NCBI GenBank assembly: GCA_963667725.2
Contig: CAXXHO010000008.1
Coordinates: forward strand, 1-18,356
Direction: 5' to 3'
Source: Treponemataceae bacterium
Lineage (GTDB): Bacteria; Spirochaetota; Spirochaetia; Treponematales; Rectinemataceae
Length of the DNA: 18,356 nucleotides
Shown: positions 1,010 to 17,887 of the stretch, piece after piece
Layout of the letters: every line of letters starts with the position of its first letter
Position numbering within the stretch: the stretch's first letter is position 1
Notes under the pieces: generated by a model
Seen by the model: only the letters and a program-made list of their open reading frames with translations
The model's database searches: none
Told to the model about the DNA's origin: nothing
Position numbers and translations under genes: made by a program

Positions 1010-1126
1010 TTGAAAACCTCCAGACTCCAGGCCACGCGTAATTGATATCCATCGGCAAGATCGCTTTGATTCAAGGCGGAATAATCGTATTTTATGATAT
1101 CGGCCATGGCCGGCCTAAGGATGCAT

Positions 1127-2815
1127 ATGATCAAACACAAGGACCTTTCCATCGTAATCTCGGGCGAGGCGGGACAAGGAATTCAGTCCATTGAATCCAT
1201 GATCACTATTTTCGCAAAAAAGGCTTTCTTCCATGTATTCGCCACGAAGGAATACATGTCCCGGGTGCGGGGAGGGTGCAACAGCACCAGCATACGCATA
1301 TCGCCGACGAGCGTCATGGCGGGCGTCGACCGGATCGACATCCTCGTGCCGCTGACGCCGGAAGCCATTCCCCACCTGAAGGACAGGATCGGCGATTCCA
1401 CCATCATTCTTGGAGAGAAAAGCCTGATAGGCGAAGATCGCATGATCGATCTTCCCTTTACGGCCATCGCCGTGGAGGCGGGCGGCGCGATCTATTCGAA
1501 TACCGTCGCGGTAGGCGCCCTCTGCGCCTTGCTGAAGATAGACCGTGCGGCCTGCGAGCCGGGCATAAGGGAATTTTTCGCGCAGAAGAGCGGCGATGTT
1601 CAGGCGGCGAACGTCGACGCCTTCAACCGCGGCTACGAGCGCGGCCTATCCTTGCGTCAGGACATCGCCATCGATATAGCCGCCGACCCTGACGTGGCCG
1701 GAAAAATAATGCTGACGGGCGCGGACGCCGTGGCCTTGGGCGCGATAGCCGGCGGCTGCAATTACGTCTGCGCCTACCCCATGTCCCCCGGCACGACGGT
1801 GTTCACGGCTCTAGCCGAATACTCAAAGCGTTTCGACATCATCGTCGAGCAAGTAGAGGATGAGATCGGCGTCGCGAACATGGCCCTGGGAGCCTGGTAC
1901 GCCGGAGCCCGCGCCCTGGTTTCCACCTCGGGCGGCGGTTTCGCCCTCATGAGCGAGGCGGTGAGCCTGTCGGGCGGGATTGAGACGCCTCTCGTCGTCC
2001 ATATCGGACAGAGGCCGGGACCGGCGACGGGCCTCCCCACCCGCACCGAGCAGGGCGATCTCAATCTCGCGATCCACGCGGGACACGGGGATTTCCTGAA
2101 AGTGCTGCTCGCTCCCGGGGATCTCGAGGAAGGCTTCGAGTTGAGCCGCGCGGCATTCGATATCGCCGACCGCTACCAATCGCCCGTATTCATATTGACC
2201 GATCAGTATTTCGTCGATTCGTACTACGCGACGCGGACATTCAAGGTTCCCGAGGCGCCGCTCGAGAATAAGGTGGTGGCGACTGCCGCCGATTATCGGC
2301 GCTACGTTCTCGGTTCCCCGGACGGCATCTCCCCCCGTGGAATCCCCGGCATGGGCGATGGAATCGTCTGCGTCGACAGCGACGAGCACGACGAAGGCGG
2401 CTACATCACGGAAAACAGGGAAATGCGCGTAGCCATGGTCGCCAAGCGCCTCGCCAAGATCGAGGCCGTCAAGAAGGACGCCATCCAGCCCACACTTTAC
2501 GGCGATGCCCGCTACAGCACGCTTCTCGTGGGCTGGGGGTCGGTAAAAATGACGATTATAGAAGCGTTGGCCGCTATCGATCAACCTGGAATCGCCTATC
2601 TTCATTTTCCCTGGGTGTACCCATTGCCAGAAAGCGCGGCCGGCTATATGGCTGCCGCATCCACCCGCGTCGCGGTGGAAGGCAACGCGACGGGGCAGTT
2701 CGCCGATCTCGTGGAATTCGAGACAGGCCTGCGCTTTGACCACAGGATCCTGAAGAGCGACGGTTACCAGTACACCGTCGAAGAACTAGCGGACAAGATC
2801 TCCGCGCTGCTGTAA
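1127..2815 (+). CDS. korA: 2-oxoacid:ferredoxin oxidoreductase alpha subunit (gamma-alpha fusion, KorA/OFOR type; substrate not determined)
   Basis: N-terminal GEAGQG and SRVRGG, YPMSP substrate loop, EDEI, TSGGGF.LM.E and QRPGPATGLPTRTEQGD. Start placed at ATG 1127 after SD AAGGA (ORF track start 1094). Confidence 0.9.
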   Translation: MIKHKDLSIVISGEAGQGIQSIESMITIFAKKAFFHVFATKEYMSRVRGGCNSTSIRISPTSVMAGVDRIDILVPLTPEAIPHLKDRIGDSTIILGEKSLIGEDRMIDLPFTAIAVEAGGAIYSNTVAVGALCALLKIDRAACEPGIREFFAQKSGDVQAANVDAFNRGYERGLSLRQDIAIDIAADPDVAGKIMLTGADAVALGAIAGGCNYVCAYPMSPGTTVFTALAEYSKRFDIIVEQVEDEIGVANMALGAWYAGARALVSTSGGGFALMSEAVSLSGGIETPLVVHIGQRPGPATGLPTRTEQGDLNLAIHAGHGDFLKVLLAPGDLEEGFELSRAAFDIADRYQSPVFILTDQYFVDSYYATRTFKVPEAPLENKVVATAADYRRYVLGSPDGISPRGIPGMGDGIVCVDSDEHDEGGYITENREMRVAMVAKRLAKIEAVKKDAIQPTLYGDARYSTLLVGWGSVKMTIIEALAAIDQPGIAYLHFPWVYPLPESAAGYMAAASTRVAVEGNATGQFADLVEFETGLRFDHRILKSDGYQYTVEELADKISALL

Positions 2816-2830
2816 GACCGGAGGATCGGA

Positions 2831-3694
2831 ATGACCGAAAATGTTTTTGACTTCAACAAGAAGATAGATATCGCCTGGTGCCCCGGCTGCGGGGATTTCG
2901 CGATCAGGAAGGCTCTCCTCTCGGCGCTCCAGGAACTAGGGCTCGAGAGAAAAAACCTCGTGATGGTGTCGGGCATAGGCCAGGCGGCCAAAATGCCCCA
3001 GTACATAAATTCCAGCTTTTTCAACGGACTCCATGGCCGCGCCCTACCGGTGGCCACGGCGATTAAGGCTGTGGCGCCCAACCTCACCGTGATAGCCGAA
3101 GGCGGCGACGGGGATATGTACGGGGAGGGAGGGAACCATTTCCTGCACGCGGCCCGTCGCAATCCTGACCTGACGCTCTTTGTCCACGAAAACATGGTGT
3201 ACGGCCTCACCAAGGGCCAGGCGGCGCCGACGAGCCGTCTGGGCATGCGAACGCCTGTCCAGGTGTCGGGCGTCATAAGCGAGCCGCTCAATCCTGTCGC
3301 CCTCGCGATCGCCATGAACGTGGGCTTCGTGGCGAGGACCTTTAGCGGGGATATAGAAGGCACCAAGGAGATTATGAAAAGAGCCATCCTCCACGAGGGA
3401 TTCGCCCTGGTGGACATTTTTCAGCCCTGCGTTTCGTTCAACAAGGGGAATGGTTTCCAATGGTTCAAGGACAACACCTACAAGCTCGAATCCGATTATA
3501 AAGCCGACGATCGCGCTCGCGCCTTCGCCCGCGCCCTCGAGGAAACGCCTTTCCCGCTCGGCGTGCTCTATGAGAGCGACCAACGTCGTCCGTTTGAGGA
3601 GCTACTGTTCCCCTATCGGGAGGACAAGACCCCGCTGCGGGAACGGAAACCGGATATGGAGCTTCTACGGACCGTGATTCGGGAAAAGGCGTGA
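2831..3694 (+). CDS. korB: 2-oxoacid:ferredoxin oxidoreductase beta subunit (TPP-binding)
   Basis: WCPGCG, LHGRA, GGDGD...N TPP motif, YGLTKGQ and QPCVSFN. SD GGAGGA; 15 nt after the alpha subunit. Confidence 0.9.
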   Translation: MTENVFDFNKKIDIAWCPGCGDFAIRKALLSALQELGLERKNLVMVSGIGQAAKMPQYINSSFFNGLHGRALPVATAIKAVAPNLTVIAEGGDGDMYGEGGNHFLHAARRNPDLTLFVHENMVYGLTKGQAAPTSRLGMRTPVQVSGVISEPLNPVALAIAMNVGFVARTFSGDIEGTKEIMKRAILHEGFALVDIFQPCVSFNKGNGFQWFKDNTYKLESDYKADDRARAFARALEETPFPLGVLYESDQRRPFEELLFPYREDKTPLRERKPDMELLRTVIREKA

Positions 3695-6109: not shown

Positions 6110-7567
6110 ATGGCAAAAAGGCTCTCACGCATACAGTATCTGCGGAGAATTTCGCTGGGGATTTTTTTGGCGGGGGTCACCGTCCTCTCCATTCTTCATC
6201 AGAACCTGCAGAATATGCCCTCTATCGACTCCCTCGATCCTTTTGGCGGTATTGAAACCCTTTTCAAGTATCTCGCGGGGGGAGAACTAATCAAGAAGAT
6301 AATGCCGGCGAACATTGTGCTTCTGATCGCGATCGTCGTGCTGGGAATCGTGCTCTCGCGCTTCTTCTGTGGCTGGATCTGCGCCTTCGGCGCTCTGCAG
6401 GGAGCCTTCGGCTGGCTCGGCAAGAAAATCTTTAAGCGCCGTTTTGTCGTGCCTGCGAAGCTCGACAGGATCCTGAGATGGGTCAAGTATCCTGTCCTGG
6501 CAGGCATCATCTATTTTACCTGGACGACAGGCACGCTGATCATCAGGCCCTACGATCCCTTGGCCGCCTACGGGCATCTCTCCGCGGGGCTGGCCGCGGT
6601 ATGGGCGGAATTCGCCGTCGGCTTTATCCTCCTCATCCTCACGCTCGCGCTCTCAATGCTCTACGAAAGGGCATTCTGCAAGTACGTCTGTCCCATGGGA
6701 GCCGTCAATGCCATTCTGGGAAGAATTTCTCTCTTCAGGATAAAGCGCGAATCGAAGACCTGCATATCCTGTTCAAAATGCGATGCCGTATGCCCAATGA
6801 ACATCGATGTGTCGGGTGCCGATACGATTTCCTCCCCCGAGTGCATAGGCTGCCTGGAATGCGTGACGGCATGCCCGACAAAGAAGGCCACCCTTGTGAC
6901 GACGCTTGCCGGCAAGGTCTGGAAATCCTGGAAAATCGTGGCGCTTGGCCTGGCAATCTACCTCGGCGCCATGGGGATTGGAGCTCTACTTGGCGAGCTG
7001 GACTTTATCGGTCCAAGCCTAACCTCACTAGCTCAATCCGGTTCCCTGGCGGTTGAGGACATCAAGGGTTCTTCTACATGGGCGATGGTGGCCGATTCCT
7101 TCGGCATAGAGCTCGAACGGCTTTACCGCGAGGCAGGCGTCGATGGGACTAAAGTCCCGGCGGACACCAAGCTGAAGGATACTGGCCCTCTCATAGGCGC
7201 CGATTTCGAGGCGGATACGGTCAGGATTGCCGTCGCCAAGATTATCGGAGTGCCCTATGCCGGTGAAGACGGCTCGCTGGCCGTTCCTGTTGCGCCAGCG
7301 GCCGCTCCCGCTACGGCAGCCCCGGCTCCTGTCGCCCCGGCGGCCCCAAGCGCGCCTGCGTCCTCCTTGCTCGTTGTTCCAGCGGATTTTGTCCTCGAAG
7401 GCACGATGACCATCAGGGACGTCGCGACTGCTTTGAACGCGACCGATGCCGCCGTCATCGCGAAACTTGGGCTTTCCGCGGACATCGCCGTGGACAAGCC
7501 TCTGCGCGACATGAAGGACCAGTTCGGGTACACGATGCCGGACTTGAAGGAAAAATTCGCGCAGTGA
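6110..7567 (+). CDS. NapH/MauN-type membrane 4Fe-4S polyferredoxin with a C-terminal tandem small domain and Ala/Pro linker
   Basis: Several hydrophobic helices; FFCGWICAFG and FCKYVCPMG (CX3C[P]) motifs; two ferredoxin motifs, CISCSKCDAVCP and CIGCLECVTACP. SD AGGAGG. Confidence 0.85.
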   Translation: MAKRLSRIQYLRRISLGIFLAGVTVLSILHQNLQNMPSIDSLDPFGGIETLFKYLAGGELIKKIMPANIVLLIAIVVLGIVLSRFFCGWICAFGALQGAFGWLGKKIFKRRFVVPAKLDRILRWVKYPVLAGIIYFTWTTGTLIIRPYDPLAAYGHLSAGLAAVWAEFAVGFILLILTLALSMLYERAFCKYVCPMGAVNAILGRISLFRIKRESKTCISCSKCDAVCPMNIDVSGADTISSPECIGCLECVTACPTKKATLVTTLAGKVWKSWKIVALGLAIYLGAMGIGALLGELDFIGPSLTSLAQSGSLAVEDIKGSSTWAMVADSFGIELERLYREAGVDGTKVPADTKLKDTGPLIGADFEADTVRIAVAKIIGVPYAGEDGSLAVPVAPAAAPATAAPAPVAPAAPSAPASSLLVVPADFVLEGTMTIRDVATALNATDAAVIAKLGLSADIAVDKPLRDMKDQFGYTMPDLKEKFAQ

Positions 7568-9522: not shown

Positions 9523-9978
9523 TCACTTCTTGCTGTCGAACTTGTCGGATTTTTTGTCCACCCACTCGCCGGCCGCCACCGCCGCGTCCTCGATCGTCTG
9601 GATGATGGCTTTCAGGAGCTTTTCGCCGGCTTTTCCCATGCGGTAAAAACCTTTGGCAGCGTCGTTCTTGCAAATCTTCGCCGCTTGGGTGATGGCGTTC
9701 TTGTACTGCTCGTCGGTCATCTTTTTCACGGCGTCCTTGAGGGGAGCGCCATCCTTCGCGTAACCGAACTTGACAGCATAGTAGGCCATGACCATGTCGG
9801 CTATGGCCTCTTCCTCGAAATTCAGCTTGCCTCCCACTATTTTCGCGATATCGTGAGCCGGATTCCTCGTCCTGAACCAGAGGAAATCGCCGAAAGCGCC
9901 GCTCACCGCCAGGGCGAACAGAAGGATGAGCGAAATCCTCCGCTTGAACCCCGCGGAAAAGAAAATGCGCGTCTTCAT
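9523..9978 (-). CDS. Hypothetical exported protein, last gene of the nqr-like operon
   Basis: Basic N-region, hydrophobic core and AFG cleavage-like site (Sec signal), then a Lys/Ala-rich helical body. ATGA overlap with the upstream gene. Confidence 0.7.
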   Translation of the reverse strand: MKTRIFFSAGFKRRISLILLFALAVSGAFGDFLWFRTRNPAHDIAKIVGGKLNFEEEAIADMVMAYYAVKFGYAKDGAPLKDAVKKMTDEQYKNAITQAAKICKNDAAKGFYRMGKAGEKLLKAIIQTIEDAAVAAGEWVDKKSDKFDSKK

Positions 9979-10451
9979 TCGGATACCGCCATCTTCTTCA
10001 GCAGCTCGGGCTCGAGCCTGAAGGGCGAGCCCCTTCCCTGGCAGAAGTGGTGGACGCGGAGGAGGTGAATGGACAGATCGGAAAAGACGAGCATGTCCTC
10101 GCCTTCGACGCAGGATTCGGGAGACTGATCGGCCGCCCTGACGCTCACCGCGTTCTTGTGAAAGAGTCCGTCATTATAGGGGCAGGGCAGCATGCCGCGG
10201 GCGTCGCCCGTCTGGACGAGAAATTTTCCCAGGGTGATAGGTTCGCCGAGCCCGCGCTCTCCCGCCGCCCTAAGTTTTTCCAGGCCCGACGCCACCGTCT
10301 CGAAATCCAGGCCCAGCCTCGCGAACTCCGCTTCGTCTTCGGCGATTATCTCCTCGGGCGGCCTTATGTCGTTTCCGAGAAAACCCTGGATCGTGATGAC
10401 GCCCGGACGCATTCTTTCAAACGCCTTTATTTCGGCAGGTCTCAATTTCAT
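9975..10451 (-). CDS. Hypothetical cytoplasmic protein with Cys/His motifs, directly downstream of nqrF
   Basis: SD GAGGGAG, 12 nt after the nqrF stop. Motifs GFLGND, LPCPY and SIHLLRVHHFCQGRGSPFRLEP; no TM segment. Confidence 0.78.
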   Translation of the reverse strand: MKLRPAEIKAFERMRPGVITIQGFLGNDIRPPEEIIAEDEAEFARLGLDFETVASGLEKLRAAGERGLGEPITLGKFLVQTGDARGMLPCPYNDGLFHKNAVSVRAADQSPESCVEGEDMLVFSDLSIHLLRVHHFCQGRGSPFRLEPELLKKMAVSE

Positions 10452-10463
10452 GGTACATCTCCC

Positions 10464-11582
10464 TCACGCGAACTTATCAAAGTATATCTTGTCTTCCGTG
10501 AGTCCGTTGCGCTTCATCACGTTTATGCACGCGTTTATCATCCCCGGCGAACCGCAGAGATACCCTTCCAGCCCCTTCGCTCTGTCGACATTCCCCTGGA
10601 GATAGCGATCCAGCACGTCGGTGATGAGGCCTACCTCGCCCTTCCAGTTTTCCTCGGGCTTGGGTTCGGACAGGGCGGGAACGAAGTGGAAGCGCGGCCA
10701 GCTCGCCGAGAGCGCCGCCATCTCGTCCAGATAGAACATGTCCTTCGTCGTCCTCGCGCCGAAGAAATACCAAATCTCCTTCTCGGGGAAGGCGCCCGTT
10801 TCATGCATGTGGTTGAGCATGCTCTTGAAAGGCGCCATGCCCGAGCCGCCGGCCACGCAGATCATGGAGGCGGGCGTGTCGTGGATGCGGAACTCGCCGA
10901 AAGGTCCCACGACTTCCACCGTGTCGCCTTCCTTGAGGAACTTGTGAACCCAGGTTGTGGCTATGCCGCCGGGCACGAGACGCACGAGGAGTTCCACGTG
11001 CTTCGTGTCGCCGGGACACGATGACATGGAATAGGCACGCTGGGCGCTCTCCGTCATGTCGCCGTAGGGCGGAACCACAAGCTGGACGTACTGCCCGGCC
11101 TGGAACTCGATCGTCTGCCCATCGATGGAGAGAAGAATTTCCTTTATATCGTAAGTGAGGTCCTTGATGCTTTCGACGCGCGTCTTGAATTTCTTGATGC
11201 TGAAAAGTTCCTCTGGAAGCTCGATAGCGAGATCCTTGCGGACCTTGATTTGACAGGCGAGGCGAATGTTGTCCTCTATATCCCTGGGGGACATGTAGGG
11301 CATCTCCGTGGGCAGGTGAGGGCCAACGTCGGTGATGACCTTGCATTTGCAGGCGCCGCAGGAACCCCTGCCGCCGCAGGCCGAGGGAACGAATATGCCT
11401 TCGGCGCCGAGGGTCCCGAGGAGGGCGGAACCGCCTTTCACCGTGAGCTCTTTTTTCCCTCCATTGATGGAAATCTTGAGCTGGCCGTAATTGTTGAGAA
11501 ATTTGTCCAGGATCGCGATGACGAGGGCCAGGAAGGTCGATATTCCGGCGACCGTGAGCGGACCTACGAGAATCGGGCTCAT
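10464..11582 (-). CDS. nqrF: NqrF-like NADH-oxidising subunit (TM anchor, 2Fe-2S, FAD, NAD domains)
   Basis: N-terminal TM helix, SACGGRGSCGAC...RLACQ (2Fe-2S), RAYS (FAD), GGSGMAP, FGAR, ALSEP, YLCGSP and terminal FDKF. Confidence 0.85.
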   Translation of the reverse strand: MSPILVGPLTVAGISTFLALVIAILDKFLNNYGQLKISINGGKKELTVKGGSALLGTLGAEGIFVPSACGGRGSCGACKCKVITDVGPHLPTEMPYMSPRDIEDNIRLACQIKVRKDLAIELPEELFSIKKFKTRVESIKDLTYDIKEILLSIDGQTIEFQAGQYVQLVVPPYGDMTESAQRAYSMSSCPGDTKHVELLVRLVPGGIATTWVHKFLKEGDTVEVVGPFGEFRIHDTPASMICVAGGSGMAPFKSMLNHMHETGAFPEKEIWYFFGARTTKDMFYLDEMAALSASWPRFHFVPALSEPKPEENWKGEVGLITDVLDRYLQGNVDRAKGLEGYLCGSPGMINACINVMKRNGLTEDKIYFDKFA

Positions 11583-11592
11583 GTTTCGCTCC

Positions 11593-12192
11593 TCACTGCA
11601 CGGCTATCATGCCGGAAAAGCCGATGAACGCCATGGCCATGAAGCCGATGGTGATGAGGGTGATGCCCGTGCCTTTCAAGCCCGCGGGGATGGCGTTGTT
11701 CTTGTCCAGCTTCGTGCGGATGGAGGCGAGGAGCATGATCGACAGCCACCAGCCTGCGCCCGAGCCGAAGCCGAAAACGACGGCCTGAACGAAATTGTAA
11801 TTGCGGATCTGCATGAAGAGAATGACGCCCAGGACGGCGCAGTTGACCGTGATGAGAGGAAGGAATATTCCCAGGGCCATATAGAGAGAGGGCGAAAAAC
11901 GATCGATAATCATCTCGAGCATCTGCACGACGCCTGCGATCACGATAATGAAGATTATAAAGGAGAGATACTCGATCCCGAGGGGCTTGATGACGAAATA
12001 CAAGACTGCCCAGCAGATCGCCGAACATAGTCCGATGACCATGGTGACGGCTATGCCCAGGCCCATCGAACTCTTGAAGTCCTTGGAAATCGAGATGAAG
12101 GAGCAGGTCCCCAGGAAGTTGGCGAGGAGGATGTTGCTCGTGAGGATGCTCGCGAGGAAAAGCGAAAGTAATCCTACATTGGGTGCGTTCAT
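11593..12192 (-). CDS. nqrE: NqrE (RnfA-family) membrane subunit
   Basis: FLGTCS and GIFLPLITVNCA carry the two Cys ligands of the intramembrane Fe-S centre. The C-terminus IPAGLKGTGITLIT.GFMAMAFIGFSG is NqrE-like. Confidence 0.85.
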   Translation of the reverse strand: MNAPNVGLLSLFLASILTSNILLANFLGTCSFISISKDFKSSMGLGIAVTMVIGLCSAICWAVLYFVIKPLGIEYLSFIIFIIVIAGVVQMLEMIIDRFSPSLYMALGIFLPLITVNCAVLGVILFMQIRNYNFVQAVVFGFGSGAGWWLSIMLLASIRTKLDKNNAIPAGLKGTGITLITIGFMAMAFIGFSGMIAVQ

Positions 12193-12193
12193 G

Positions 12194-12811
12194 TCACTTT
12201 GTTCCTTTCTTTTTCGCTTCGGCCTTGGCCTTGTAGGTGTTGGCGGCCCAGAGCGCCATGGCCACGAGGAAGAACGCCGATGGCGCCATCACCATGATCG
12301 TCCAAGGCGTAAAGCCTTCGCCCATGAACTTGATCCCGAAGAACGAGCCGAAACCAAAGAATTCGCGGATGACGGCGATGCAGACGAGAACCCATCCGTA
12401 CCCCAAGCCGTTCGCTATGCCATCGATGAAGGAAGCTCCCGGCTTGTTGGCCGCGGCGAAGGCCTCGGCTCTTCCCATCAGGATGCAGTTCGTGATGATA
12501 AGGCCGACGTAGGGACCCAGCTGCTTGGAGATGGCCGGCTGGTAAGCCCTGAGCAGTATGTCGATGATGATGACATAGAAAGAAAGCACGAGTACCTGGA
12601 CTATCATGCGTACTTTGCGCGGGATGAGATCCTTGAGGAGGGAGAGGGTCCAGCTTCCCATGGCCGTGGCAAAGGTCACGCCAAGCACCATGATCAGGGT
12701 GTTGCGGAGATTGTTGGTGACGGCGAGGGTGGAGCAGATGCCGAGAACCTGGACGAAAATTGGATTGTTCGTCCAGAGACCATCCTTCATGATTTTGCGC
12801 GCGGGGCTCAT
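12194..12811 (-). CDS. nqrD: NqrD (RnfE-family) membrane subunit
   Basis: NNPIFVQVLGICSTLAVT and ISKQL..YVGLIITNCILMGRAEAFA follow NqrD closely, with both Cys retained. Confidence 0.87.
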   Translation of the reverse strand: MSPARKIMKDGLWTNNPIFVQVLGICSTLAVTNNLRNTLIMVLGVTFATAMGSWTLSLLKDLIPRKVRMIVQVLVLSFYVIIIDILLRAYQPAISKQLGPYVGLIITNCILMGRAEAFAAANKPGASFIDGIANGLGYGWVLVCIAVIREFFGFGSFFGIKFMGEGFTPWTIMVMAPSAFFLVAMALWAANTYKAKAEAKKKGTK

Positions 12812-13437
12812 AGGCTGCCTCCGATTTCTTTTACCGTCGCGAGGGCCTTCGCGACGAGCGTCTGGACAAAGTCCGAGGTCCGGCTCGCGCCCGTTATCGC
12901 GTCGACCTTCGAGTTTTCCTTGTCGGGATCGCCCTTTCCCGAACCTTGCGCGACGGTCACTTTCCCGTCGCTCCCGACTTTTTCGCCCTTGAACTGGTCA
13001 GTGAACCATGCTTCCCCTATGCGGCCGCCCAGTCCGGGCGTTTCCTGCTGGTCGAGCATTTCGAGTCCGCGTATGCGTTCCGCCTTGGGATCGGCGGCAA
13101 GGATGGCGGTTATCGGTCCCCAGAGACCGGGATTCGTGATTTTTACGGCCACGTAAGCGGCGCCATCGATAGTCGAGCCGTAGGCGGCCATGCCCGGCGC
13201 GGGTTCGGGGAGTTCCTTTACCTGGCTCGAATAGGTGCTTTCCACCTCCGCTTTCGAGGTTTCCGGACCGGCCAGGTCGAGGGCCTTGAGGACGGCGTAA
13301 TGGGACGCGTAGCTCTGGTTGGCCTTCACCCGCGGGAGGGTGATTTGGTTCGCCGCGGCGAGGAGGACGACGAAGGCTGAACAGACGACAAAGGTGAATA
13401 CGATGACGTAGCCGATGGATTCCTTTTTAAGCTTCAT
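12808..13437 (-). CDS. nqrC: NqrC (RnfG-family) FMN-binding subunit
   Basis: True start is MKLKKESIGY at 13437 (ATGA overlap with the nqrB stop); the 470-aa track ORF has a spurious N-terminal extension. One TM helix, GLWGPI, ETPGLGGRI and flavinylation motif VDAITGAS. Confidence 0.85.
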   Translation of the reverse strand: MKLKKESIGYVIVFTFVVCSAFVVLLAAANQITLPRVKANQSYASHYAVLKALDLAGPETSKAEVESTYSSQVKELPEPAPGMAAYGSTIDGAAYVAVKITNPGLWGPITAILAADPKAERIRGLEMLDQQETPGLGGRIGEAWFTDQFKGEKVGSDGKVTVAQGSGKGDPDKENSKVDAITGASRTSDFVQTLVAKALATVKEIGGSL

Positions 13438-14360
13438 GCGGCGCTCCCCTTTTTCTCCGCGACGGCCGGTTTCTTTATCGAATCGACGGCGATGTCGATG
13501 AGGCTCGCGAAGGTGTTGCCGAAGAGGATGGCGAAACTCGTGCCTTCCGGAAAAGCCGAAAAGGTTCGGATGACGACGGCGGTGATACCTATCAGGGCGC
13601 CGTAGACGTAGTGGGAAGGCTGGCGCTTGGGCGCCGAGATGGGATCGGTGGCCATGAAAACGGTGACGAAGAGGAAGGAGCCGGCGAGAAGGCTTTCCAT
13701 GGGGAGGGCCTGAGGGACGCCGCCGTAATAGAGGGCCGCGTTGAGGGCGGCGGCGGCGGCGATCGAGGATAGGATGATGCGCCAGCTGGCCGTCTTGGTG
13801 GCGATGAGGTAGATCGCCGCCGCGCCCACGAGGAGCGCCATGCCCTCTCCCATCGCCCCCGGGCGTTGGCCGAGAAGGAGGTTCAGGATGTCGACGCTCT
13901 GGCCTGAACGCATGAGGCCGAGGGGGGTGGCCGAAGCCACGACATCGACCGTGCCCAAGCCGAATCCGCCGAACGTGGAATAGGAAGCGGAGAGCACGAT
14001 GGCGAAGGATATATAGACAAAGGCGCGTCCCGCTATCGCCGGATTGAAGATGTTCTTGCCGAAGCCGCCATAGACGCCCTTGGCCAGGGCGGTGGCGAAA
14101 ACGATGCCTACGCCAAGAATCCAGAGCGGCGTCGCAGGCGGAAAGGCGAGGGCATAGAGAGCGCAGGTTATCAGGATAGCCTCGCTGACTTTTCCCGATT
14201 TTTTCCTCTCGAAGACCCACTCGGTGCCGATTCCCAGGATGAAGACCACAGCCGCCGAAAGAAGGACTTTATAGCCATACATCCAGATCGAATAGAGGTA
14301 GATCGGCACGAGAGCGTATAGGACTCTGCGCATCATCGGCTGTTTCAGGAATTTCACCAC
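13434..14360 (-). CDS. nqrB: NqrB (RnfD-family) membrane subunit, short form
   Basis: YGGFGKNIFNPA..GRAF, DVVASATPL (FMN-Thr), PGAMGE, FMATDPISAP, FPEG and FASLID. GTG start with SD AAGGAGG. Confidence 0.85.
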   Translation of the reverse strand: MVKFLKQPMMRRVLYALVPIYLYSIWMYGYKVLLSAAVVFILGIGTEWVFERKKSGKVSEAILITCALYALAFPPATPLWILGVGIVFATALAKGVYGGFGKNIFNPAIAGRAFVYISFAIVLSASYSTFGGFGLGTVDVVASATPLGLMRSGQSVDILNLLLGQRPGAMGEGMALLVGAAAIYLIATKTASWRIILSSIAAAAALNAALYYGGVPQALPMESLLAGSFLFVTVFMATDPISAPKRQPSHYVYGALIGITAVVIRTFSAFPEGTSFAILFGNTFASLIDIAVDSIKKPAVAEKKGSAA

Positions 14361-14381
14361 GGCTGAGCTCCTCCTTTACGT

Positions 14382-14410
14382 AGAGTAGTATAGGCAATCG
14401 TTATTTGCAA
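14382..14410 (-). promoter_or_regulatory. Putative sigma70 promoter of the nqrBCDEF operon
   Basis: Minus strand TTGCAA-17 nt-TACTCT, with an overlapping alternative -10 TATACT, just upstream of the SD in an AT-rich divergent intergenic region. Confidence 0.5.
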
Positions 14411-14514: not shown

Positions 14515-14532
14515 CCCATGGGGAGAGAAAGC

Positions 14533-15207
14533 ATGGAAACCATTCTGTCATTCGAGGAAGACGCAAGCCTGGATGGGCTGCGAATCGGGCTCGTGGAAGC
14601 GAGAGGCCTTCGCTGGGCCGCGACGCCGGCCGGCGGGCAATTCCTGGCCGCCATCGCGGAAGCGAAAACGAGAGGGGAGGCCCTCATCTCCCCCACCCGC
14701 AAATCCGCCGTGCGCGCCATGCTTCGTTACGGCGCCTACAAACCCGCCGGCCGCGGCAAGCCATCGAGCGAGTATCTCCTCCAGGCAGCCCTCGACGATG
14801 ATTTTCCCGCCGTCAACTTCTTCGTCGACGCGGCCAACATCGTCAGCCTCCTTTCGGGCTATCCCATCAGCATCCTGGACCTGGATAAATCCGGGTATCA
14901 CCTCCTCCTGCGAAGGGGAAGGGCAGGCGAGAACTATGTCTTCAATGCCGGCGGCCAGACGATAGAGCTCGCCGACCTCCTCTGCGTCTGCAGGCAGGCG
15001 GGCGAAGACTTCTTCCCTACCGCCAACCCGGTCAGGGACTCCATGGCCACGAAAATCTTTCCCGGCGCCAAAACCATCGCCGCCGTACTCTACGCGCCCG
15101 CTGGAGCCGAAGGCCGGGACCTCGAATCGGCCTGCGCGAAACTCGCGGCCTATCTCTGGGAATCGGCCGAAAGCGCGGAATGGAGGGTAGTGGAAGCCGA
15201 ACGCTAG
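14533..15207 (+). CDS. Stand-alone B3/B4 (PheRS beta editing-like) domain protein
   Basis: VRAMLRYGAYKPAGRGKPSSEYLL...FPAVNFFVDAANIVSLLSGYPISILDLDK...LRRGRAGE resembles the B3/4 pattern. Start placed at ATG 14533 after SD (ORF track 14518). Confidence 0.75.
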   Translation: METILSFEEDASLDGLRIGLVEARGLRWAATPAGGQFLAAIAEAKTRGEALISPTRKSAVRAMLRYGAYKPAGRGKPSSEYLLQAALDDDFPAVNFFVDAANIVSLLSGYPISILDLDKSGYHLLLRRGRAGENYVFNAGGQTIELADLLCVCRQAGEDFFPTANPVRDSMATKIFPGAKTIAAVLYAPAGAEGRDLESACAKLAAYLWESAESAEWRVVEAER

Positions 15208-15241
15208 ACCTTCACGGCTTTCCTCGATACCATTCGCCCCA

Positions 15242-16258
15242 ATGGAAATGATGGATTCGAGCGACGAAAACCTCAGGAAGGCGGGATCGGCCATAGCGGC
15301 GGGCAAGCTCGTCGTCATCCCCACCGAGACCGTCTACGGCCTCGGCGCCGACGCCTTCAACCCGGACGCCGTCGCGCGCGTTTTCGAAGCCAAGAGACGT
15401 CCCGCCTTCGACCCGCTCATCATCCATATATCCAGACTCGACGATATCGAACGCATCGCGACCTCCTTTCCGCCCAAGGCACGGCTTCTGGCCGAAGCGC
15501 TCTGGCCCGGCCCCCTCACCATGATTTTACCCAAGCGCCCCGAGGTGCCCGATATCGTCACTTCCGGTCTGGACACGGCGGCCGTGCGCTTCCCTGTCCA
15601 TCCCGTCGCGAGGAAAATCATCGAATATTCCGGTACGGTGGTGGCGGCGCCCAGCGCCAATCCCTTCGGCTACATATCGCCCACGACCGCGCAGCACGTG
15701 GCAAAGACCCTCGGCGATCGCGTGGATTTCATCGTCGATGGAGGACCTTGCGCCGTGGGCGTCGAATCGACCGTCATCGATATGACCCGCGATATTCCGG
15801 CCGTACTGAGGCCCGGCGGCATGCCTCTGGAGCGAATCCGTGACATTATCGGCGAAGTGCTGATTCCCGGAAAGAAAGGCGGACTCATAGCCAGCCCGGG
15901 CCAGCTCAAGAGCCATTACGCGCCTCGCGCGACCCTCTACCTCCATCCGTGGAATTCCCTGCCCAACGCGCTTCGGCAGGCCTTGCCCGGCGGCGTCGCG
16001 GCCGATCCGTCCGCCGCTCCCATGGCCGCCATCGTCTTCGACGCGTCCCGCGCCTCCATCCTGGCGGAATCGGGGCTTTTTGGGCGTATCGACGTTCTTT
16101 CCGAGCGCGGCGACATGAGAGAGGCCGCTTCGCGCCTTTTCGCCCTTCTGCATGAACTCGATGCCGCCGGTTTTGGGATCATCCACGCGGAACGCGTTCC
16201 CGAGGAAGGTTTAGGGCGAGCCATCAATGATCGGCTATATCGCGCATCGAAAAAGTAG
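15242..16258 (+). CDS. sua5: L-threonylcarbamoyladenylate synthase Sua5 (TsaC2: YrdC + SUA5 domains)
   Basis: PTETVYGLGA, KRRP..DPLIIH, WPGPLT, AAPSAN, GVESTVID, LRPG, linker SPGQLKSHYAP and C-terminal GLGRAINDRL.RA. Confidence 0.93.
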   Translation: MEMMDSSDENLRKAGSAIAAGKLVVIPTETVYGLGADAFNPDAVARVFEAKRRPAFDPLIIHISRLDDIERIATSFPPKARLLAEALWPGPLTMILPKRPEVPDIVTSGLDTAAVRFPVHPVARKIIEYSGTVVAAPSANPFGYISPTTAQHVAKTLGDRVDFIVDGGPCAVGVESTVIDMTRDIPAVLRPGGMPLERIRDIIGEVLIPGKKGGLIASPGQLKSHYAPRATLYLHPWNSLPNALRQALPGGVAADPSAAPMAAIVFDASRASILAESGLFGRIDVLSERGDMREAASRLFALLHELDAAGFGIIHAERVPEEGLGRAINDRLYRASKK

Positions 16259-16342: not shown

Positions 16343-17887
16343 ATGGATGGAATAAGGACTGTCGTCACATCTTTGCTTCTCAGCTCATGCATGGCCATCG
16401 CCGTTGTCTGTGTGCTCGCGCTCCGGAAACGATCGACATCGGGCCTGGCCGCGATTTTCCTTGCCCTCTGCGGGCTGAGCGCGGCGATATACGACTTCGG
16501 CTACGCGATGGAAATTCGCGCGACGACGCTGCCCAGCGTCCTTTTCTGGGTTCGTTTCCAGCACTGGGGCATCCAGTCCATACCCCTATTCTGGCTCCTG
16601 TTCACGCTTTGCATCATCGGGAAAAACAAGCTTGTCACTCCGCTTTTTGTCATTTTGATATCCATTTTACCCCTCCTCGCCCTCGCCGCTTCCCAGACCC
16701 TGGGCGGACTAAACCTGCTTCACCCGAACCCTCATTTGGGGGGCGGAGACATGATTTCCCTCTTTCAATACGACAGGGGATGGGCCATATATCTTGTGAC
16801 GGCAGTCCAGAGCGTGTACCTTCTGGCGAGCGCCATCCTCCTGGTCGGCGTGCTGATCCTCGGCGTTCCGGTGCCTCGCCCGCAGACGCTCATCTATCTG
16901 GCGGGCTTCCTTCTGCCATGGTTTAACGGCCTCGCCTACAATATGGGGCTGATCCCCTATAATCTGGATTCCACGCCCCTGATCTTGAGCATAAGCATGG
17001 CGCTTTTCATGATCGGTTTCCTCAAAGTCGGGATGCTCGACATAGCGCCGCTGGCTCGCGACGTGATCTTCGAGGGCACGAATGACGGGATTCTGGTCAT
17101 AGACCGGCATAGCCGGATCACCGATTTCAACACCTGCATGAAGTCCATAATGCCCTTCCTCGACAGATCCAAGACGGGCGTTCCGGCCCGGACCGTTTTG
17201 GCGAATTACGGTACCTTGTGGGAGTTGCTGGACCATGAACTGCCGGCCGTGATCGAGTTCCAGCCGGATTTCAAATCCGATAAGCGCATCTTCCGCGTAT
17301 CCTCAGCCATTCTTCGAGGCAAATTGAACAAAGATCTCGGCAAGCTCCTGACCTTTCACGATGTGACCGAGATGAAAGAACTCCAGCGGCGGCTAGAATT
17401 CCTGGCTATCCACGACGAGCTCACCGGGCTGTACAATCGCCGATATCTCAATGAAGTCGCGTCCCGTGAAATAGAAAAGGCGAAGCGTATCGGCGGCGAA
17501 TTTTCGATGTTGATGCTGGATCTGGATCATTTCAAGCTTGTCAATGACACCTTCGGTCACGCCGGCGGCGATCAGGCCCTCATCGCCATCGCCAAGGTCT
17601 GCAGGAGCACGGTAAGGGAAACCGATATCGTGGGTCGTTTCGGCGGCGAGGAAATCCTGGTCCTGCTTCCTGATACAGCGGATTCAGCCGCGCGCGATAT
17701 CGCCGAAAAAATGTGCGTCGCGATCGAAGCCAGTCCGATTTCCTTCGAGGGAGAAGAAATCTTCCTTACGGCGAGTTTCGGCGTCGCATCGATGAGCCCG
17801 TCCTGCAATACGTTGAAGGCTATCCTGATATCAGTCGATAGAGCGCTCTACAGGGCCAAGACTTCGGGCAGAAACCGCGTCTGCTAG
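16343..17887 (+). CDS. Diguanylate cyclase with an N-terminal 7TM (HisKA_7TM-like) sensor, PAS-like domain and GGDEF domain
   Basis: About 7 hydrophobic helices, then DIAPLARDVIFE..NDGILVID (PAS entry), DELTGLYNRR, DLDHFKLVNDTFGHAGGD, RETD I-site, RFGGEEI and ALYRAK..GRN. Confidence 0.9.
   Translation: MDGIRTVVTSLLLSSCMAIAVVCVLALRKRSTSGLAAIFLALCGLSAAIYDFGYAMEIRATTLPSVLFWVRFQHWGIQSIPLFWLLFTLCIIGKNKLVTPLFVILISILPLLALAASQTLGGLNLLHPNPHLGGGDMISLFQYDRGWAIYLVTAVQSVYLLASAILLVGVLILGVPVPRPQTLIYLAGFLLPWFNGLAYNMGLIPYNLDSTPLILSISMALFMIGFLKVGMLDIAPLARDVIFEGTNDGILVIDRHSRITDFNTCMKSIMPFLDRSKTGVPARTVLANYGTLWELLDHELPAVIEFQPDFKSDKRIFRVSSAILRGKLNKDLGKLLTFHDVTEMKELQRRLEFLAIHDELTGLYNRRYLNEVASREIEKAKRIGGEFSMLMLDLDHFKLVNDTFGHAGGDQALIAIAKVCRSTVRETDIVGRFGGEEILVLLPDTADSAARDIAEKMCVAIEASPISFEGEEIFLTASFGVASMSPSCNTLKAILISVDRALYRAKTSGRNRVC

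Follow-up and report, generated by a model that had tools for sequence, protein, structure and literature searches.

A conserved sixth gene next to an nqrBCDEF operon without nqrA in a spirochaete of the Rectinemataceae, and a candidate role in ion-pumping NADH:rubredoxin oxidoreduction

The window analysed here is an 18,356-nucleotide stretch of DNA from a Treponemataceae bacterium and comprises the whole of contig C8 (CAXXHO010000008.1) of its genome assembly GCA_963667725.2 (G000; 4.22 Mb, 97% complete, 6.3% contamination), whose nearest relatives are Rectinemataceae/Treponemataceae records among the spirochaetes. The possibility that C8 is a contaminant was rejected because the contig has the tetranucleotide profile usual for this genome and two relatives show synteny with the window. 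The minus strand of the window carries five genes in the order B-C-D-E-F for a membrane redox complex related to the NADH:quinone oxidoreductase that translocates Na+ (NQR) and to Rnf, followed 12 nucleotides past F by a sixth gene, here called u1. An earlier, sequence-only reading of the same DNA described a tight five-gene unit, and its open reading frames and junctions are as claimed, with ATGA overlaps at B/C and C/D and gaps of 1 nucleotide at D/E and 10 nucleotides at E/F, but the unit extends to six genes with the inclusion of u1. The features of the locus are as follows.

13434..14360, minus strand: B subunit (NqrB/RnfD family, 308 amino acids, GTG start); Pfam NQR2_RnfD_RnfE
12808..13437, minus strand: C subunit (NqrC/RnfG family, 209 amino acids); Pfam FMN_bind; motif DAITGAS, ending in Ser185
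12194..12811, minus strand: D subunit (NqrD/RnfE, 205 amino acids); Pfam Rnf-Nqr; C26, C109, R68 and E116
11593..12192, minus strand: E subunit (NqrE/RnfA, 199 amino acids); Pfam Rnf-Nqr; C30 and C118; NqrE-type ITVNC motif
10464..11582, minus strand: F subunit (NqrF-like, 372 amino acids, membrane anchor); Pfam Fer2, FAD_binding_6 and NAD_binding_1
9975..10451, minus strand: u1, a 158-amino-acid alpha/beta protein and predicted output adaptor; conserved sixth gene with rubredoxin fusions in relatives
9523..9978, minus strand: u2, a 151-amino-acid open reading frame overlapping the u1 stop; in close relatives only and outside the conserved system
14368..14377, minus strand: ribosome-binding site of B, AAAGGAGGAG, read from the sequence
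14518..15207, plus strand: divergent B3/4-domain gene, the upstream boundary of the operon and no member of the system; in 17 of 80 loci, close relatives

The Shine-Dalgarno sequence proposed for B is present as AAGGAGG just upstream of the GTG start, whereas the putative promoter proposed along with it is not supported, as scanning for sigma-70 promoters turned up none for B, and promoter and terminator scans of the window returned hits at chance level only. No gene has been lost upstream of B because the divergent gene starts at 14518, and the suggestion that nqrA or rnfC had not been cut off by the window was thus correct. A search of the whole genome with the NqrA profile TIGR01936 found no nqrA, its sole matches (E 0.05 and 0.12) falling inside RnfC, and NqrA, RnfC and RnfB are absent from all 80 related loci collected around B, 63 of which hold F and many of which are incomplete upstream. 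The genome has an intact rnfC, together with rnfB, in a separate canonical rnfCDGEAB operon at C5:850272-855352, and an ApbE gene is present on C3. Among curated Nqr models only that for D (NF006777) is passed at its cut-off; B, C, E and F stay under the cut-off of every Nqr and Rnf model, with F reaching 285 bits against a cut-off of 295 although its membrane anchor and 2Fe-2S, FAD and NAD domains are all present. D, E and F have their highest scores on Nqr models.

Gene order and co-occurrence place u1 in the nqrBCDEF system. It lies directly after F in 60 of the 63 loci that hold F, two of the remaining three ending inside F, and right after F in 135 of the 140 distinct u1 loci collected from five phyla. 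Of 251 Spirochaetota genomes, 32 have u1, 32 have F (35 matches minus three of 33-34% in frames of 750-790 amino acids) and 31 have both. In the other phylum sets, each counted with its centre genome, u1 occurs in 51 Thermotogota out of 81, 3 Clostridia-phylum genomes out of 301, 11 out of 201 in the phylum to which Victivallales belong and 4 Fusobacteriota out of 81. Ilyobacter polytropus has all six genes (ILYOP_RS10220-10195), with u1 annotated as hypothetical, and at locus L123 (genome G243) the operon is in pieces with u1 kept beside the fragments. The two proteins encoded downstream of F had been named as possible partners; this holds for u1, which travels with the operon, and not for u2, which is ruled out as a subunit because only 9 of the 80 loci carry it, all of them from close relatives.

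No Pfam, NCBIfam or PDB sequence matches u1. Atlas features hint at DUF7919 (PF25535) for u1, with values of 0.96 to a cluster with 13% carriers of that domain and 0.90 to a cluster with 99%, while 51 members gave no match in the Pfam copy searched. The predicted fold of u1 has a predicted local distance difference test score (pLDDT) of 89.7 and a predicted template modelling score (pTM) of 0.86; a fold search against 48,161 chains gave a top Z of 2.6 and Foldseek returned nothing at E 0.001, which in itself does not prove a new fold. Across 126 u1 sequences, seven residues never vary (D39, G86, P91, K99, F136, G139 and R145) and three are kept in most (H129 in 124, H134 in 117 and C90 in 110). 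Domains resembling u1 are also found in two or three copies in the long proteins P0121, P0227 and P0189, with no Nqr link seen, and those of P0121 have Ser instead of Cys.

The predicted cofactor chain is intact, as the sequence-only reading had it, from FAD and 2Fe-2S in F through the cysteines of D and E to the flavin sites of C and B. The iron-sulfur cysteines of F are C69, C75, C78 and that of the RLACQ motif, while both membrane cysteines are kept in 69 of 69 D sequences (C26, C109) and 63 of 64 E sequences (C30, C118). The flavinylation motif of C is TGAS, with Ser in place of the Thr used by Rnf and NQR, and occurs in 65 of 70 homologues (43 ending in Ser, 22 in Thr). D R68 and E116 correspond to RnfE R67 and E115, which belong to a proposed Na+ path (PMC11889175), and where RnfA has T111 and Y105, E has V and F, as NqrE does. 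B was aligned in 41 NqrA-less, 7 NqrA-type NQR and 7 Rnf rows; all 41 NqrA-less rows keep the flavin mononucleotide (FMN) threonine T145, and the riboflavin-site residues N106 and D239 are found in 41 and 38 of them. The long N-terminal extension of NqrB, whose helices form the quinone pocket (PMC12174285), is present in 7/7 NQR rows and 0/41 NqrA-less rows, and the same split (7/7 Rnf rows, 0/41) applies to the N-terminal SPH/APH arm of RnfD, which is buried in RnfC (PMC9588780). Both are replaced by a short F-x-K-Q N-terminus, with Gln in 40 of 41 rows. Since the cofactor residues of B are kept and both extensions are missing, the electron wire would reach riboflavin without either known exit, in keeping with the earlier description of an NADH-type input (an NqrF-type F) that lacks the usual output module. 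An analysis of covariation between subunits was dropped because its D-E positive control did not rise above background, the effective number of sequences being 34-79.

A tree of B, D and E (55 rows, 687 columns, LG+F+G4, fast mode, small reference sets), supported by the Shimodaira-Hasegawa-like approximate likelihood ratio test (SH-aLRT) only, unites the 41 NqrA-less rows, three of them without adjacent u1, in one clade (SH-aLRT 100) that is sister to the 7 NQR rows (94.5), with the 7 Rnf rows outside; L175 was excluded because only its B matched. On this tree the complex is a member of neither Rnf nor NQR, and its subunits do not nest inside canonical NQR; the label of an Rnf/Nqr intermediate was therefore an overstatement for what is a sister lineage of NQR that lost the A/C subunit. 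The combination that would have refuted the sequence-only reading, an nqrA elsewhere in the genome and subunits placed within canonical NQR, was thus not found. Better candidates for a genuine intermediate between Rnf and NQR are operons with long B and NqrF that hold NqrA-like subunits (L125:3885-5399, L126:3449-4846 and L127:1216-2616), which in the two scanned, L125 and L126, have an RnfC-like C-terminal 4Fe-4S dicluster domain.

The NqrA-less layout has been in print since 2014, acceptor question included, and the sequence-only reading had allowed for similar operons elsewhere. NqrBCDEF without NqrA was reported for Thermotoga thermarum (Theth_1137-1141) and T. lettingae with an 'unknown' partner (PMC4148951), clusters of the same kind are listed for Pseudothermotoga lettingae (Tlet_0865-0869) and Clostridium ultunense (CUESP_0375-0379), the acceptor of the latter being still to be found (PMC5924567), and 'Ca. 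Izimaplasma' ZiA1 is among the bearers (PMC6256511); PMC4014512 was also drawn on. The published clusters resemble the one described here in having five genes in B-C-D-E-F order, no nqrA and a separate Rnf operon, and the Pseudothermotoga loci match B at 52-54%, but the accessible text counts five genes and mentions no sixth gene or rubredoxin acceptor. The literature searched, mainly outside subscription journals and without supplements, likewise yielded no description of either. Compared with the Na+-NQR of Vibrio cholerae (PDB 7XK3), the operon shares the F-type input, the B/C/D/E core, the gene order and the cofactor residues, and differs in having no NqrA, an additional u1, a B that is about 100 residues shorter and a place in a separate sister clade. 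It is like the Rnf complexes of Clostridium tetanomorphum (7ZC6) and Acetobacterium woodii (9ERI) in its D-G-E-A core with FMN, riboflavin and 2Fe-2S sites, the retained R68 and E116, an RnfD-sized B and a predicted soluble cytoplasmic output, and unlike them in its NqrF-type input and the absence of RnfB, RnfC and the RnfC-binding arm. Two-subunit Nqr/Rnf-like complexes (Huang et al., PMC10979944) also pair NqrB/RnfD- and NqrC/RnfG-like subunits without NqrA or RnfC, but they are two-gene systems whose B is joined to an NAD-binding domain and has lost the FMN threonine, as opposed to six genes and a retained threonine here.

A candidate acceptor is suggested by what u1 is fused to and what lies next to it. 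In two contigs (L168 and L169) a u1::rubredoxin fusion follows F directly, in L169 in the order flavodiiron-B-C-D-E-F-u1::rubredoxin; u1 is also joined to rubredoxin in P0205 and to a rubrerythrin domain in P0164, and the predicted fold of the u1::rubredoxin fusion (pLDDT 90.5, pTM 0.74) consists of two folded domains and implies nothing about docking. In ten spirochaete genomes the sole rubredoxin gene comes after u1, in several of them followed by genes for a rubrerythrin-domain protein, Rrf2, ferritin, Fur and rubrerythrin. A rubrerythrin-domain gene follows u1 in loci of the Clostridia phylum and Thermotogota, and at L137 a rubrerythrin-domain gene, desulfoferrodoxin and rubrerythrin stand immediately before B. 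In total 19 of the 140 u1 loci, 130 of which had at least 600 bp of downstream DNA, have an oxygen-defence gene no more than 800 bp downstream (rubredoxin in 12, a rubrerythrin-domain gene in 3 and ferritin in 4, the last all in Thermotogota), while 0 of 14 Rnf or NqrA-type control loci have such a neighbour. Rubredoxin itself is found in 50 of 51 u1-positive Thermotogota and in 50 of 50 other tested genomes. G000 has a rubrerythrin-desulfoferrodoxin-rubredoxin cluster at C3:2120558-2121734 with two flavodiiron genes and a ferritin gene elsewhere, and rubredoxin is a known donor to rubrerythrin, superoxide reductase and flavodiiron proteins (PMC13333549).

It is proposed, with a probability of roughly one half, that B-C-D-E-F-u1 forms an ion-pumping NADH:rubredoxin oxidoreductase, a reading that combines the two missing exits with the co-occurrence of u1, its fusions and the gene neighbourhood. 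By analogy with NQR and Rnf, F would oxidise NADH and the electrons would pass through FAD, 2Fe-2S, the membrane 2Fe-2S, FMN in C and FMN in B to riboflavin, and the residues kept suggest that export of Na+ or H+ is coupled to this transfer. u1 would take the place of RnfC or NqrA on the cytoplasmic face of B and dock rubredoxin close to riboflavin, so that rubredoxin rather than quinone receives the electrons; reduced rubredoxin would in turn feed rubrerythrin, superoxide reductase and flavodiiron proteins, and the cell would conserve energy while O2, H2O2 or NO is removed. The potential of rubredoxin is roughly -60 to 0 mV. With NADH at -320 mV (PMC12174285), the span would be about that from NADH to menaquinone and enough for pumping. 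The predicted overall reaction and the rubrerythrin, superoxide reductase and flavodiiron partners are those of the chain that begins with soluble NAD(P)H:rubredoxin oxidoreductase (NROR; PMC13333549). NROR is a single soluble flavoprotein, whereas the step proposed here would belong to an ion pump in the membrane. Where rubredoxin adjoins u1 in the spirochaete clade, genes for 6-phosphogluconate dehydrogenase, glucose-6-phosphate dehydrogenase and lactonase are found directly upstream of B (L197:684-2447, L200:37-3339), and NADPH may be a donor there.

Several observations weigh against this proposal. L080 has no u1 after F, four u1 loci with upstream DNA lack an adjacent F, and genome G130, which is 99% complete, has BCDEF without a u1 match, its operon (L124) having an enlarged B; distant relatives of u1 are repeated within long proteins of other kinds. 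Cys90 is replaced by Ser in 16 of 126 sequences, which makes it doubtful that u1 has a metal site. The ten genomes with adjacent rubredoxin count as one event because nine share one family and the tree unites the four that it includes. Oxygen-defence genes are near only a minority of loci (the 19 of 140 downstream and 2 of 76 upstream), the window itself has no rubredoxin-system neighbour beside the operon, the control set of 14 is small, and the neighbours could reflect shared iron and oxygen regulation rather than substrate. Non-carriers have rubredoxin too (30 of 30 Thermotogota, 138 of 219 Spirochaetota), and its presence in 80 of 81 Thermotogota was discarded as a marker of carriers. G000 further encodes a soluble candidate NADH:rubredoxin reductase with an NROR-type domain. 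A pattern of mutual exclusion between u1 and soluble NROR, with 12 strong matches all in u1-negative Thermotogota, was rejected as evidence because eight of the 12 belong to one near-identical family, the two inspected stand in another context and G000 has both; these two adjoin an Fe-S gene, with what is presumably a gene of the glutamate-synthase type on the other side.

The alternative that best survives, though it is considerably less probable, is that u1 is a true subunit or assembly factor and the acceptor is another soluble carrier, such as flavodoxin, a ferritin-like or disulfide protein or free flavin, or varies with the lineage, the neighbours being co-regulated. It draws on the 121 of 140 u1 loci without a downstream rubredoxin-system gene, on ferritin and rubrerythrin-domain neighbours being iron proteins that may be co-regulated, and on single fusions of u1 to nitroreductase, thioredoxin-like and aldo-keto reductase domains. 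However, rubredoxin is the sole partner that occurs fused to u1 as well as beside it, it serves the flavodiiron, desulfoferrodoxin and rubrerythrin proteins alike, and the remaining fusions are single sequences, of which one (P0270) is likely misassembled. Looking for u1 in longer proteins gave one probable misassembly.

That the complex reduces menaquinone with NADH, without NqrA and at a remodelled quinone site, corresponds to the membrane carrier offered first by the sequence-only reading and is unlikely. The sister relation to NQR and the Nqr-leaning scores of D, E and F would fit it, the Gly141 marker is not strict (Leu in 2 of 7 NQR rows), and G000 has, as a further point against rubredoxin, an MqnL that passes its cut-off, a prenyltransferase resembling MqnP, UbiX and an adjoining ATP-binding cassette (ABC) transporter (C3:1835863-1839821; L011:6864-10822), without early futalosine genes. 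Menaquinone is possibly made there from an imported precursor, the MqnA/D and MqnC/E families having no match in G000. Against this reading stand the quinone helices missing from all 41 B rows and the lack of any UbiA-family gene, taken as one class without separating subtypes, in 34 of 51 u1-positive Thermotogota (compared with 16 of 30 u1-negative ones) and in 14 of 50 further genomes, a set that includes G130 and G384, which has a short u1 and no operon beside it. In addition, three spirochaete genomes hold both operon types, the NqrA-type one having a long B and no u1 and in one case adjoining MenA- and MenG-like genes.

A borrowed RnfC from the Rnf operon, the second option of the sequence-only reading, would make the complex an ion-coupled NADH/NAD(P)+ transhydrogenase and is quite improbable: intact rnfC genes, present in G000 and in all 5 of the other carriers that were tested, and the oxidative pentose-phosphate genes upstream in one spirochaete clade, speak for it, but it is disfavoured because B has no arm to hold RnfC, whereas the RnfD of the genome's own Rnf operon has an SPH arm, and it leaves u1 unexplained and the NADH/NAD+ span presumably without driving force. 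A second, stand-alone RnfC-like gene with no core subunits nearby was seen at L185 (G253:C1:118552-119784). An outward exit, in which flavinylated C would pass electrons to metals or other acceptors outside the cytoplasm and B would be a scaffold, has equally little in its favour, since a similar cluster in a metal reducer (PMC5924567) and the frequency of outward transfer among flavinylated proteins (PMC10979944) are countered by the FMN threonine in 41 of 41 B rows and the riboflavin residues, which point to a path back to the cytoplasm, and by the lack of a conserved outer partner gene near the loci.

Elsewhere on the plus strand, the window encodes a two-subunit 2-oxoacid:ferredoxin oxidoreductase (1094-3694), a NapH-like membrane 4Fe-4S protein whose C-terminal part is unassigned (6110-7567; one paralogue at C3:202543), and, at 14518-16258 and 16343-17887, the B3/4-domain protein, Sua5/TsaC and a 7TM-GGDEF diguanylate cyclase.

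What is new here is a conserved sixth gene and a testable candidate acceptor, and with both named the question open since 2014 can be put to the test, for example by following rubredoxin at 494 nm. The wider claim, of a third Rnf/NQR branch in the form of a six-subunit ion-pumping NADH:rubredoxin oxidoreductase with a sixth subunit of undescribed fold, serving as a quinone-free respiratory chain in fermenters, is held tentatively and at somewhat under even odds. If it is true, the Rnf core would have taken on an output module of a third sort, in addition to RnfC/NAD+ and quinone, and strict anaerobes without quinones or cytochromes would gain an ion gradient from the reduction of O2, H2O2 and NO by way of soluble rubredoxin, rubrerythrin and flavodiiron proteins. 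For many anaerobes, including the Thermotogota that carry u1, the detoxification of oxygen would then yield energy and not be a cost alone.

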